Part shown: positions 10,741 to 13,238 of the stretch, in pieces
Position numbering within the stretch: the first letter of the stretch is position 1
Layout of the letters: every line of letters begins with the position of its first letter
Source of the DNA: a virus
Taxonomy: Duplodnaviria; Caudoviricetes
Direction: 5' to 3' (one strand)
Virus record (IMG/VR): IMGVR_UViG_3300021958_000035
Span: 1-64,000 of that record
DNA: 64,000 nucleotides
Translations under genes and position numbers: made by a program
The notes under the pieces: generated by a model
Seen by the model: the letters and a program-made list of their open reading frames with translations, nothing else
Told to the model about the DNA's origin: nothing
The model's database searches: none

Positions 10741-11423
10741 AAACTGAAAATAAAGTAGAATTGCTTGGATTTTACGGCGACGATGAAACTATTGCGTGTT
10801 CAGCTTGGACAAGCACTAGTAGAAATTTGACGGACGAAAAGAGAGCAAGAATCCCAGCTATGATCGAGACGCTTTGGGTCAACGGACACGAAACTCCATT
10901 CGAGAAGGCTATCGTTCACTTCCTAGTAAATGTAGATCAGGCTACGCACATCCATCTGCTAAAACACCGCATGAGCAGTTTTAACGGAGAGTCTGCTAGG
11001 TATAAAGAATTGAAGGAAGATAAGTACTACCTACCGCAAGATTGGAAAGGCATCCGAATTTCAGATAATGGAGAGGCTTTAAATACACCATCTGACGACT
11101 GGCATCAAAGGCTGGCAGAATATACAGAAGAAGGTAATAGATTATATCATGCTTGCTTGGCAGACCTTGAACCAGTATTGGGACGCAAGAGAGCAAAAGA
11201 GTCAGCGAGATTCTTCAAGACTTATAATAGTCAAATTCAGGCTGACATTATGTTCAATATGAGAAGTTTTGCTAACTTTGTCAAGCTAAGACGCTCTCCA
11301 CACGCCCAGCTTGAGGTCAGAGAAATCGCAGATCAGATGCTTCAGTTAGTGCGAGATATTGAGGGCGAACCATTCAAGCACACCATTGAGGCTTGGGAGA
11401 ATTCAGGAATAATTAGGAATTGA
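10737..11423 (+). CDS. thyX: flavin-dependent thymidylate synthase
   Basis: GHETPFE, KHRMSSFNGESARY, N.RS..NF..LR...HAQ.E.R motifs. Confidence 0.92.
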   Translation: MKTENKVELLGFYGDDETIACSAWTSTSRNLTDEKRARIPAMIETLWVNGHETPFEKAIVHFLVNVDQATHIHLLKHRMSSFNGESARYKELKEDKYYLPQDWKGIRISDNGEALNTPSDDWHQRLAEYTEEGNRLYHACLADLEPVLGRKRAKESARFFKTYNSQIQADIMFNMRSFANFVKLRRSPHAQLEVREIADQMLQLVRDIEGEPFKHTIEAWENSGIIRN

Positions 11424-11426
11424 TAA

Positions 11427-11714
11427 ATGAGTAGTTTTAAATGTGAAAAATGCGGCACAATGTGTTACGATACTCTTAATGGTTACATTACAGGGTGCGA
11501 ACATTACCCAGCGGACTTAAAATATATTGATGTTCCAAATAAATGTATTGAGTCAAGATTAGAAATTTGCCCCTTGTGCCACGATACAAAAACGGTTACG
11601 ACTCCACTACAAACCATTAAAATGATTATTGATCCAAAATACAGAACTGAGTGTCATAAATGTAAAGTCTGGTGGCATACTTATAAAACAGTGATAAATG
11701 AGCAAGGCGTTTGA
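11427..11714 (+). CDS. Cys-rich zinc-binding hypothetical protein
   Basis: three CxxC pairs; N-terminal 31 aa nearly identical to 12778..12990. Confidence 0.7.
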   Translation: MSSFKCEKCGTMCYDTLNGYITGCEHYPADLKYIDVPNKCIESRLEICPLCHDTKTVTTPLQTIKMIIDPKYRTECHKCKVWWHTYKTVINEQGV

Positions 11715-11799
11715 TCGCTGGCTTAGAGGATTTCTTTCTGGAATGTTGATTGGTTCCAGTCTGACCTGCATTATAATATCACTAATAGGTGACAAATGA
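11698..11799 (+). CDS. 33-aa single-TM peptide (MSKAFDRWLRGFLSGMLIG...GDK)
   Basis: starts and ends in junction motifs; hydrophobic core. Confidence 0.55.
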   Translation: MSKAFDRWLRGFLSGMLIGSSLTCIIISLIGDK

Positions 11800-11990
11800 C
11801 TGAACTTTGTGTAGTTCTTATTACATTCGCTACATTATTTCCTCTTTATATGATAATTAGATCACGATCAAATAAGCCGCCTAAAAACTGGTGGATGTAT
11901 CATACTAAAGATTGTGGGACAAAATACCGTGGATGTTCACCCGATTGTCCTAAAGATATTTATGAACGAACTGGTGAATGGAGGAGTTGA
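11796..11990 (+). CDS. small membrane-anchored protein with Cys/His motif
   Basis: N-terminal TM; H..DC....GC...CP. Confidence 0.7.
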   Translation: MTELCVVLITFATLFPLYMIIRSRSNKPPKNWWMYHTKDCGTKYRGCSPDCPKDIYERTGEWRS

Positions 11991-11993
11991 TAA

Positions 11994-12422
11994 ATGACTG
12001 TTAGAATTACTAAAAGTTTAAGCGAATCAATTCAATGGTTCTGCGAAGATGAAATTGAGATTGGCGATCCTTTGTATGGCGACTGTAATGATGAACCTAT
12101 GATGGCCCGAAGTTTCAAAAACAGGAAACCGTCAGATAAATTGTTGGGCGTCTCTACCGTATTTGTGGCAACGATTGATTTAACAAAATATCATCATCAC
12201 GCTTATTTAAACGTAGTAAACACAGGAAATAAAATAATGATTTTGCAAGATGGTGAAATCTGTATTCGTAGAAAATATGATAAAATCCCCTGTGGACAAC
12301 CAATGTACGTTTCCAAAAAGGGGAAAATAACTTGGAGAAAACAATGTGACCTTATAGGTCGGGCATCATCCAAACAAGACAAAGATGGGTTTTTGAAAGT
12401 TAGGATAAAGATAAATGACTGA
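11994..12422 (+). CDS. hypothetical protein, possibly capsid decoration/cement-like
   Basis: IDLTK..H, G.PMYV...G.IT, IGR..S..D.DGF.KV pattern recalls phage cement proteins (recollection, unverified). Confidence 0.5.
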   Translation: MTVRITKSLSESIQWFCEDEIEIGDPLYGDCNDEPMMARSFKNRKPSDKLLGVSTVFVATIDLTKYHHHAYLNVVNTGNKIMILQDGEICIRRKYDKIPCGQPMYVSKKGKITWRKQCDLIGRASSKQDKDGFLKVRIKIND

Positions 12423-12774
12423 CAAGTCAGAAAAAAAACCAGACGGATATATTGACATTCCCCATTTAAATGCTAAAATACCATTCTGGAATGTGCCGCC
12501 AGTAAGTCTAATGGATGCCAACCCTATCTATATTTCAAAAGAAGATAGGGAAAAACTATTAAAGTTAAGGGTAGACATGTACAAGAATTATAATTATGCG
12601 AAAACGAAGGTTGATATAATCAAATGTTCTATTTGCGGAAATAGTTTTGCTGCTAGATTCCCAAAAACAGGAGACTCTGTAACCTGTAGTCATTGTGGGG
12701 CAGAAGGTCATGGAACATACGACGAGGGCGGTAATTATATGTTAGAATGGTATGAAAGCGATACTTGGAGTTGA
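12415..12774 (+). CDS. zinc-ribbon hypothetical protein
   Basis: CSIC...CSHC. Confidence 0.7.
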   Translation: MTDKSEKKPDGYIDIPHLNAKIPFWNVPPVSLMDANPIYISKEDREKLLKLRVDMYKNYNYAKTKVDIIKCSICGNSFAARFPKTGDSVTCSHCGAEGHGTYDEGGNYMLEWYESDTWS

Positions 12775-12777
12775 TAA

Positions 12778-12990
12778 ATGAGCAATTTTAAATGTGAAAA
12801 ATGCGGCACAATATGTTACGATACTCCTAATGGATATATTACGGGGTGTGAGCATTACCCAGCAGATTTAACATTTGTTTCTCTCACAAAAAGAGAGGAA
12901 GTTTTAAAAGAATTAACCCAGCAGTCCCAAGAACTTGGACTGTATGATATGACAGATAACCCAATGATAGATGAAGGAGTTGATAAATGA
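12778..12990 (+). CDS. hypothetical protein (N-terminal paralog of 11427..11714)
   Basis: MSNFKCEKCGTICYDTPNGYITGCEHYPADL shared module. Confidence 0.7.
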   Translation: MSNFKCEKCGTICYDTPNGYITGCEHYPADLTFVSLTKREEVLKELTQQSQELGLYDMTDNPMIDEGVDK

Positions 12991-13238
12991 GTGACCCATT
13001 GGGAATAAAACTAGACGACTGGAACGCAGACCATTATGCTCACGCTATTAAATCTTGGGGTCTGAACGACACACAAATGAAAGTATTGAAGATTATGGTG
13101 TATGATATTTATATGGATGGTTGGGTTGATGGTGTTGCTCATAGAACAAATCTTACACCAGATAAATATAGAGAACGATTAACTAACGATATACAAAACA
13201 GTTGGATAAGACTGATTGTTGAAGGAGTTGACAAATAA
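12987..13238 (+). CDS. hypothetical protein
   Basis: AAGGAG RBS, coupled to upstream gene. Confidence 0.7.
   Translation: MSDPLGIKLDDWNADHYAHAIKSWGLNDTQMKVLKIMVYDIYMDGWVDGVAHRTNLTPDKYRERLTNDIQNSWIRLIVEGVDK

Follow-up and report, generated by a model that had tools for sequence, protein, structure and literature searches.

In the array of small accessory genes that follows thyX in this large, uncultured phage, the joint between one gene and the next is a single 15-base sequence in which the stop of the upstream gene, a ribosome site and the start of the downstream gene lie together. We observed that this motif is confined to arrays, that it receives the upstream gene independently of reading frame, that the cassettes it bounds occur in permuted order among related phages, and that the joints of recent rearrangements fall inside it. 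From comparison of these sequences, we hypothesize that the motif is probably a translational-coupling junction that doubles as a short-homology recombination joint. The window referred to below is the whole stretch of 64,000 nucleotides that was analysed, part of a record of 95,216 nt; all features described in it lie on the + strand.

A chain of small genes joined by one motif

The conserved left flank of the array is thyX (10737..11423; Pfam Thy1, E 5e-30), which ends at the TGA within junction 1 (11415..11431), a copy of the motif with one SD mismatch. The first cassette, c1 (11427..11714), encodes a Cys-rich protein of 95 aa and extends 17 nt beyond the next start; from the motif onward, the cassette is paralogous to c6 for ~105-125 nt (ungapped identity 84% over 124 nt; 88% in a local alignment of 114 nt). 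Junction 2 (11689..11702), with the core present and a weak SD, opens c2 (11698..11799), a hydrophobic peptide of 33 aa, and junction 3 (11786..11800), a C variant with its SD one base nearer, opens c3 (11796..11990; 64 aa), which has homologues in the related loci L230 and L229/L247. The full motif at junction 4 (11983..11997) leads into c4 (11994..12422; 142 aa). Junction 5 (12403..12432) has the core and a degenerate SD part, and is followed by a second, tandem core copy that encodes the recurrent N-terminus MTDKSE; the cassette begun there, c5 (12415..12774), specifies a zinc-ribbon-like protein of 119 aa. Full motifs are again found at junctions 6 (12767..12781) and 7 (12976..12990), which start c6 (12778..12990; 70 aa), the N-terminal paralogue of c1 with a GVDK end encoded by the next junction, and c7 (12987..13238; 83 aa), respectively.

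All eight junctions and all seven ORFs were found where the sequence-only reading had placed them. Its claim that one motif is shared by the seven starts describes a core array that is real, although the starts at 11698, 11796 and 12415 are partial forms. The motif at 13224 that it took to close the array is also present, but as the dead start of a decayed eighth cassette: in dead junction 8 and the remnant behind it (13224..13290), the start ATG has become ATA, and the sequence, of the family of L007 4455 / L022 4462, also has an internal deletion and a 3' truncation. The right flank is a DUF1501 gene (13325..14551), 92% identical in nucleotides to that of L081/L082, whose thyX is only ~70% identical.

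The core of the motif, TGAYAAATGA, occurs seven times in the whole 95,216-nt record, always on the + strand. Six of these copies lie within 11421-12990, i.e. in the 1.6-kb array; the seventh, at 9351, supplies the -35 of a promoter of sigma70 type, that of uvdE (9350..9378), in which the -35 and the next five bases make up the C variant of the core. Across the same record the full form, GGAGTTGAYAAATGA, is confined to the array, and the SD-containing 13-mer has four copies, all in 11983-13236, with none at the remaining ~110 gene starts on the + strand. When its ninth position is written as R, the 10-nt core matches the window 10 times; 1.39 +/- 1.2 matches would be expected, 0 of 100 shuffles reach 10, and a reversed-pattern control of the motif scan gave 0 matches. 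The genome-wide count against background that had been proposed as a check therefore shows a motif confined to the array rather than one general at gene junctions. Where only a single similar junction (34770) had been noticed elsewhere, we find two motif-like gene starts outside the array in the window, with near-variants at 16375 and 34772; the former (16375..16389) is an isolated motif-like start, with one mismatch, of a conserved 165-aa gene.

Of 974 non-redundant gene starts from 105 related loci and this record, 36 have the core against ~1 expected from background start-context frequencies; the motif positions left out of the search pattern are likewise conserved. Two motif spacers make up 20 of the 127 GGAG-N7-ATG starts, the next commonest spacer being represented by 5. 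The motif spacer of 7 nt is the modal SD spacing, and the motif spacers nonetheless form a distinct outlier family. Use of the T or the C variant is largely genome-specific, and in four long contigs from relatives, 36-84 kb in length, the motif is also limited to one array.

The extended junction consensus is AAGGAGTTGAYAAATGA(G/C)T. A junction contains a GGAG SD 7 nt from the AUG, an A/U-rich spacer, stops in two frames (TGA, often then TAA, and the TGA of ATGA) and the start codon; with the upstream stop a few bases at most from the downstream start, after the SD, it has the layout predicted for translational coupling. All copies share one orientation on a single strand, and these many direct copies are the only repeats within the array. 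No terminators were found inside it. We considered and rejected the junctions as internal promoters: a -10-like hexamer at the right distance occurs only at the dead 13228, where a TTGACA lies 16 nt from a TACAAT, and inside c5. Folding of the junction RNAs gave z-scores of -1.5 to +0.65 and no common structure, which indicates that they are unstructured, and neither known RNA families nor a conserved RNA fold were found at the junctions. A search for YopX found none in this record.

The upstream gene ends at the junction in all three frames (34 in frame A, 10 in B and 4 in C). A GVDK C-terminus is found on 27 unrelated proteins, orthologous junctions stand a 1-nt indel apart that shifts the frame, and some copies of the motif are dead or have been absorbed into coding ends. 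Peptide-level conservation of the GVDK tail is ruled out by the three-frame use, the frame-changing indel and the dead copies. Since the upstream stop is not tied to one of the three frames and dead copies persist, it is the DNA or RNA that is conserved and not the peptide, in agreement with what had been proposed for the DNA from the frames seen in the window.

Cassettes and breakpoints in related phages

The relatives are metagenome assemblies throughout. Related phages have the same motif as a single array, with up to 17 exact core copies in 5.5 kb; in the 17-copy array the motif stands at about 19 of 22 gene starts. Some of the phages that share the motif have a RecA only 39% identical to that of this phage. 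An exact-pattern scan of IMG/VR gave, among the matches listed, mostly chance single matches, together with the 17-copy contig and several 3-copy contigs, and no GenBank phage was found with the array or with c4. The location of the array differs by phage (after thyX, uvdE or RecA), and no gene adjoins the arrays consistently.

Several arrays have cassette families in common, in permuted order, beside non-array genes that are collinear; gene order in the relatives is thus not identical, and shared cassettes occupy different places. Three cassettes of the window recur elsewhere at 84-96% nucleotide identity with motif-to-motif bounds and different neighbours: c2 (96% over 112 nt to a cassette of L254), c4 (92% nt and 87% aa identity to a cassette from a phage with a RecA identity of only 39%; over the loci compared, c4 has four different neighbours on the left and five on the right) and c7 (84% over 264 nt by blastn to a cassette of L123 situated directly after uvdE). 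A peptide-pattern search for c7 gave no match. The first 173 nt of c5, from exactly the motif, are 95% identical to L081/L082, and its last 65 nt, including the junction, are 100% identical to L252.

The decisive evidence lies in strain variants of two relative lineages, which have flanks 98-100% identical and differ by whole cassettes. One cassette is added in L248 and one is lost in each of L256 and L255; in L253 a cassette is replaced by one situated 3 kb away in L247; in L238 three cassettes (1,266 nt) are deleted; and in L240, L242, L252 and L254 a different neighbour begins directly at the motif. By our own count, ~14 of the 17 rearrangement joints are inside the motif, and crossovers could be located within an identical core as small as 10 nt. 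The contig L255 has a perfect terminal repeat of 509 nt; its period, 1,205 nt, covers five cassettes with the joint in the motif, and the contig fits a circle, a tandem duplication or an assembly cycle alike. The insertions, deletions and replacements in the strain variants support the earlier suggestion that the motif serves as the crossover for cassettes, and we regard it as a natural adaptor for gene shuffling because close relatives gain, lose or swap single genes exactly there. Breakpoints in relatives had been expected to lie exactly at the motif; most recent joints do, and some breakpoints lie inside genes: the c5/DUF1501 fusion in L081, a break within c5 in L243 and the decayed eighth cassette of the window are non-motif events, and in more diverged cassettes about half of the homology boundaries are within genes. 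In the population of the window phage itself, 16 contigs of 99.4-100% identity all have the same order, with no array variation.

In junction pairs with 88% identity or more on one side, the opposite side is unrelated in 10 of the 11 pairs that have the motif and in 56 of the 192 that do not; this threshold was used in place of one of 66%, which gave no discrimination. Because one-sided homology is also found at these 56 non-motif pairs, selection for intact genes contributes to gene-end boundaries. It could be argued that the motif is only a very good coupling site, selected for high or coordinated early accessory expression, whose match to the boundaries arises only because gene-breaking recombinants are lost. 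Such a site would hold what the motif holds, namely SD, optimal spacing, stops and start, in an unstructured RNA, and would be compatible with the mosaic boundaries common at non-motif gene starts and with the L007 4887 family, whose cassettes occur both with and without the motif. We nevertheless judge it unlikely: convergence of dozens of unrelated genes on the same 15-19 nt is implausible when almost no other gene in the same genomes has the motif, variants are genome-specific, dead and absorbed copies persist without translational use, and the recent joints are concentrated in the motif among genomes 98-100% identical, even though the genes are dispensable, so broken variants should survive.

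Proposed mechanism of exchange and candidate enzymes

We picture the array as a hyperplastic block of small co-transcribed accessory genes in which each pair is linked by a portable junction. As RNA, the junction would couple translation of the adjoining genes; because it has both stops and a start, a gene arriving in any frame would end a few bases at most from the next start. As DNA, its direct copies would act as short-homology crossover points, offering 10-17 identical bases, a length that the duplicated extension can raise to ~33. Unequal exchange, template switching or annealing at these points, within a genome and between co-infecting phages, may lead to the precise gain, loss, duplication, replacement or relocation of whole cassettes, and every arriving cassette would bring a working stop, ribosome site and start. 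Given that distant phages share the same junction, cassettes presumably move between lineages too. The crossover may be made by general recombination and replication functions rather than by a site-specific recombinase. The RecA-like recombinase and the Cas4-like nuclease named in the sequence-only reading are both encoded in the window, the first (35617..36726) being a candidate catalyst of short-homology exchange and the second, of PD-(D/E)XK type (42295..43335), a candidate end-processing enzyme. Counting against short-homology exchange, 10-17 bp is short for RecA-type exchange.

Integrons are cassette arrays with the tyrosine recombinase IntI encoded beside them, an attI site and, at the end of each cassette, an attC site whose imperfect inverted repeats form a hairpin of 60-140 nt. 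The array resembles them in that its cassettes are promoterless and of one orientation, single genes read from an upstream promoter, with content that varies by whole cassettes through cassette-sized indels at a repeated boundary element, and in that a circular intermediate is possible. The boundary element, however, is 15 nt long, asymmetric and unstructured rather than an attC hairpin, and is itself the ribosome site, stop and start. No attC-like hairpins or inverted repeats were found at the junctions. The earlier observation that the window encodes no integrase extends to the 95-kb record, in which neither PF00589 (tyrosine) nor PF00239 (serine recombinases) had a match when the controls did; genes may be missing, since this record is only ~57% complete. 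The array is therefore integron-like in effect, as had been suggested, but not in integrase or attC-type structure.

The crossovers within identical cores down to 10 nt, the likeness of L255 to five cassettes in a circle of 1,205 nt or in perfect tandem duplication, joined at the motif, and the conservation of the motif across phages with 39% RecA identity are also what one might expect if the exchange had an enzyme of its own. Dedicated putative machinery, whether a nuclease, a recombinase or a programmed template switch, phage- or host-encoded, might target the motif, excise circles and reinsert them at other copies within and between lineages. We think this improbable; were it true, the array would amount to a genuine system of viral cassette exchange that has no integrase, and the L255 contig would be the first sighting of its circular intermediate. 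The proposal of a site-specific system, an integron analogue without IntI in which a putative phage or host enzyme recognises the motif to excise and insert circles, could draw on the incompleteness of the record, and we find it similarly improbable, given the asymmetric motif free of inverted repeats and hairpins, the lack of any tyrosine or serine recombinase in 95 kb, the lack of a gene consistently beside the arrays (thyX, uvdE or RecA precede them) and the occurrence of non-motif rearrangements.

Known junction elements and the meaning of the array

To our knowledge, the PeSLs of T4-type phages are the only well-documented linker system. In these promoter-early stem-loops, exchange between nearby copies gives mini-circles (Arbiol et al. 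2010, PMC2839356; Comeau et al. 2014, PMC4122927). As in our array, the small non-essential ORFan genes of hyperplastic regions are separated by copies of a short conserved expression signal, and close relatives differ by indels and replacements at the repeats with no dedicated recombinase. A PeSL is a longer composite of sigma70 promoter and terminator stem-loop, which makes each gene its own transcription unit, whereas the repeat described here is 15-19 nt long, has no -10 element or stem-loop, lies within one transcript, contains stop and start codons and provides homology of only 10-17 nt. Our best reading is that the array would work like the T4 PeSLs, but at the level of translation. The phage studied here encodes an rIIB-like gene and is not demonstrably T4-type.

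The start-associated sequences (SAS) of Cluster K mycobacteriophages are an asymmetric 13-bp motif with AGGAG (Pope et al. 2011, PMC3203893). Our motif does not match the 13-bp SAS consensus of PMC3203893, sharing only the AGGAG core. Both place an SD a few bases upstream of the ATG in a subset of non-structural genes of unrelated families, have one orientation, sometimes include the upstream stop and are conserved beyond the needs of rRNA pairing. SAS, in contrast, lie dispersed along the right arm of the genome instead of chaining a contiguous array, exclude the start codon, vary in spacing (3-7 bp), have an upstream inverted-repeat extension (ESAS) in half of the cases, which is absent here, and have had no role in recombination proposed for them.

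Stoperators are asymmetric sites of ~13 bp that lie at gene junctions, all facing one way, and repeat the sequence of the operator that overlaps the -35 of an early promoter. Those of Cluster A mycobacteriophages are mentioned in PMC3203893. The array has in common with them asymmetric one-orientation junction sites that coincide in sequence with -35 regions. Stoperators, in contrast, are distributed genome-wide in temperate phages, out of register with start codons, and no repressor or lysogeny module is seen in this phage. We regard as very unlikely the reading in which a protein or RNA binds the motif and switches the array off or on as a block, on mRNA like SAS or the T4 RegA/RegB targets or on DNA like stoperators: it would suit the conservation beyond SD pairing needs, the genome-specific variants expected of site-binder co-evolution, the 9-11 bases that the C variant has in common with the -35 region of early promoters in this phage and the placement of all copies on one strand, but stoperators lack the fixed register with the start codon, a RegA search gave no match (its control also matched nowhere, which makes it uninformative), and binding alone would not explain rearrangement joints inside the motif. 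Such binding can coexist with a coupling junction that doubles as a recombination joint.

Phages have many small genes lacking assigned function, and how these are gained and rearranged is a long-standing question. One view is that illegitimate joins form at random and are then sifted by selection, the other that exchange takes place at conserved linkers. Here the linker would be the minimal translation junction itself, so that a cassette set between two copies would be immediately terminated, ribosome-loaded and started, whatever its frame; this design may offer a ready-made template for building polycistronic gene arrays. Because the adaptor is shared down to 39% RecA identity, uncultured aquatic phages of a broad group may be able to exchange accessory genes from a common pool, and because metagenomes already hold single-cassette strain variants, the rates and directions of this exchange should be directly measurable.

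Junction motif and its confinement to the array

The source record, of which the window covers the first 64 kb, is a linear IMG/VR virus sequence of 95,216 nt, estimated to be 57% complete, in which genes run on the + strand up to ~68.8 kb. Between thyX (10737-11423, +; Pfam Thy1), which precedes the array, and a DUF1501 gene to its right (13325 to 14551, +) lie seven small + strand ORFs of 33-142 aa each, termed c1 to c7. All seven start inside a motif of ~15 nt that combines SD, stop and start, as the sequence-only reading had stated. The best copies, at 11983, 12767 and 12976 and also at 13224, where ATA stands for ATG, read GGAGTTGAYAAATGA on the + strand; partial forms lie at 11415, 11689, 11786 and 12403 (+). 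The search for terminators gave none within the array, whose closest strong upstream promoter lies at 9350. We also observed a sigma70-like site inside the 5' part of c5 (12452-12479: TTGACA, 16 nt, TAAAAT, with TG before), a stretch retained in both c5-derived copies of the related locus L081. A second, divergent DUF1501 gene lies at 43467-44729, 30 kb downstream of the first.

With R allowed at its ninth position, the 10-nt core of the motif, TGAYAAATGA, is matched 10 times in the window, where 1.39 matches are expected; the count of 10 was attained in none of 100 shuffles. Core copies ending in ATGA number seven in the whole record, all on the + strand; six lie within 11421-12990, the seventh, at 9351, is a promoter -35, and none was found at the remaining ~110 + strand gene starts of the record. 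The similar junction noted elsewhere, at 34770, does exist as a look-alike at 34772, but a second occurs at 16375, so it is not the only one. Among 974 non-redundant gene starts drawn from 105 related loci and the window record, the core is present at 36 (~1 expected), and positions outside the search pattern are likewise conserved, giving a consensus of ~19 nt. In these phages GGAG is most often followed by a 7-nt spacer; of the 127 starts with GGAG and such a spacer, 20 have one of the two motif spacers and 5 have the runner-up. Given the core excess, the confinement to the array, the conserved extra positions and the outlier spacers, the motif differs from the context in which gene starts of these genomes generally lie.

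The strong early promoters at 9350, 16863, 20894 and 22037 (also 13228) form one class, with TTGACAAAT at -35, a 17-nt spacer and GTAGAC preceding TATAAT. Over nine bases this TTGACAAAT coincides with the C variant of the junction, the identity reaching 11 bases in relatives, and comparison of locus L038 with L022 reveals a promoter in place of a gene start at the same position.

Conservation of the junction in varying frames

We tallied the endings of upstream genes over 61 unique motif junctions: 34 stop at the TGA of ATGA, which places a GVDK tail on 27 unrelated proteins, 10 stop at the in-motif TGA, 4 a few codons beyond the start and 12 earlier. At the c3-c4 junction, a 1-nt indel inside the motif between the window and the orthologous L230 shifts the stop to another frame. 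In L081 one motif copy has become coding sequence of a C-terminus by readthrough, and the recurrent N-terminus MTDKSE is a second core copy in tandem. In L123 (reverse strand, 4716-5651) GVDK also forms the end of uvdE, a conserved repair gene, so that the junction has been absorbed into this core gene's end.

The copy at 13224 had been read as closing the array. It is a motif copy, but in fact the remains of an eighth cassette's start, where ATA has taken the place of ATG: it can be aligned with the beginning of a cassette family found at L007 4455 and L022 4462, and a 34-nt internal fragment of that family's gene follows it at 94% identity. Because a dead start is followed by an internal fragment of the same gene, we assign 13224-13290 to this relic, which has lost internal sequence between two TACAAT-like repeats. 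The TTGACA of the dead junction, 16 nt from TACAAT, could now act as a DUF1501 promoter. The varied stop frames, the c3-c4 indel and the dead and absorbed copies bear out the proposal that the nucleic acid (as DNA or RNA), not the peptide, is conserved.

Rearrangement among relatives and strains

In the related loci, retrieved using thyX, DUF1501, c1 and c4, the motif forms one cluster per phage, with 9-11 copies in L081/L082, 3-4 in L007, L018, L022, L060 and L062, and 17 exact core copies in L229, an 8.9-kb contig in which the start of ~19 of 22 consecutive small genes lies within the motif or a variant differing from it by one base. Across whole relative contigs of 36-84 kb, where a reversed-pattern control gave zero matches, the core is limited to the array cluster; the two longest contigs each have, in addition, a solitary copy, possibly a promoter -35 like that at 9351. 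The array follows thyX in the window, uvdE in five relatives and, directly, RecA in L247, and precedes DUF1501-thyX in L081/L082; whether motif position -3 is T or C depends largely on the genome. Among the cassettes of the relatives' arrays, YopX-family genes are the most frequent, one array having as many as four paralogues (e.g. L229 1-5500; L018 720-1767); these genes are themselves mosaic, with a recurrent mid-gene breakpoint, and none was found in the window record.

Shared cassette families are permuted between arrays, and adjoining non-array genes are collinear: the order is c4-c5 in the window versus c5-c4 in L082, and for families f22 and f14 it is f22-f14 in L082 versus f14-f22 in L229, other families being alike. 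Where one flank of a junction pair was at least 88% identical, the other was unrelated in 10 of 11 motif pairs versus 56 of 192 non-motif pairs. In more diverged cassette pairs, homology boundaries fall about half within the junction and about half inside genes, many of the latter in mosaic YopX genes. A 173-nt segment shared by the window and L081/L082 at 95% identity has its left end precisely at the motif and its right end within c5. DUF1501 with its leader (13301-14551 versus L081 4196-5446) is 92% identical to L081/L082 and thyX only ~70%, which points to recent transfer; in L081 a deletion outside the motif has joined this leader to the opening 15 codons of a c5-like cassette.

Strain variants were found via contigs encoding exactly the same 68-aa cassette, in two relative lineages (references L247 and L237), and their flanks are 98-100% identical, so that joints can be read to the base. 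Relative to L247, L248 has one added cassette (191 nt) between two core copies, a 176-nt cassette flanked by two copies is missing in L256 and L255, and L253 has the same 176-nt cassette replaced by a 41-aa cassette from 3 kb downstream in L247, with both joints in the motif; L252, L254 and L255 have other neighbours directly at the motif. Relative to L237, L238 has a 1,266-nt deletion of three cassettes between two copies, and L240 and L242 diverge immediately after the motif. By hand count over the strain variants, ~14 joints lie in the motif and 3 elsewhere (in L243 a break lies within c5; the others are an end of a relocated fragment and a boundary in the middle of a YopX gene), so the prediction that cassette gain, loss or reordering breaks exactly at the motif holds for most joints but not all. 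The motif with its extension makes up at most a tenth of array length, and a naive hand calculation gives this split a probability of order 1e-11 under uniform placement. Assembly chimeras at the repeat are unlikely, since crossovers share only 10-17 nt of identity, less than even the smallest k-mers that assemblers use.

The two ends of contig L255 (1,714 nt), 509 nt each, are identical at a period of 1,205 nt, which spans five cassettes with the closing joint in the motif; the contig may be a circle, making it a candidate mini-circle, or a tandem duplication without mismatches, or a cycle in the assembly graph. The window phage's own population, sampled by 16 contigs at 99.4-100% identity, has a single array order, so turnover is not fast at that scale. 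Near-identical strains of this phage (L221/L222/L223, ~10000-10900) differ at the repeat-rich 15950-16330, downstream of the invariant array, with 83-98% partial matches and differing gene calls.

Window cassettes also occur in other phages. The c2 cassette matches L254 at 96% identity over 112 nt, core to core, and has there a YopX gene on one side and a different cassette on the other; c4 matches the L229/L247 lineage at 89-92%, motif to extended motif; c7 matches L123 at 84% over 264 nt, motif to motif, and lies there directly after the uvdE that ends in GVDK; and L252 has the last 65 nt of c5 plus the junction at full identity, with a different cassette coming next. Between the L247 phage and the window phage, RecA is 39% identical versus 87% for c4, and no other DNA common to the L247 phage and the window record was detectable, so single cassettes move between distant phages sharing the adaptor.

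Roles of the junction and known systems

No inverted repeats, Rfam match or stable fold were found at the junctions. The absence of an integrase, noted for the window, extends across the 95-kb record (~57% complete), in which no tyrosine or serine recombinase was found; the RecA-like recombinase and Cas4-like nuclease named in that reading are encoded at 35617-36726 and, as a PD-(D/E)XK nuclease, at 42295-43335. From the sequence, the most economical reading gives the motif a role in two parts: on RNA it would be a frame-tolerant translational coupling junction, and on DNA its direct repeats would be short-homology crossover sites, the crossovers being made by general recombination, annealing or template switching. 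For phage annealing systems, exchange at 5-13 bp is on record (cited in PMC2327257).

The promoter-early stem-loops of T4-type phages (PMC2839356, PMC4122927) have the same evolutionary working but, unlike the window motif, are promoter-terminator composites. The start-associated sequences of Cluster K mycobacteriophages (PMC3203893) resemble the window motif at the start site, yet they are scattered and not known to be linked to recombination, and integrons are alike in effect only. We found no description in the literature of an SD-stop-start junction as a recombination linker, and no cultured phages carrying the array. The sequence-only observation is confirmed, and its proposal of a cassette module joined by a crossover junction is supported by strong comparative evidence, with a putative mechanism; the array would represent a form of linker-mediated modular shuffling, a known principle.
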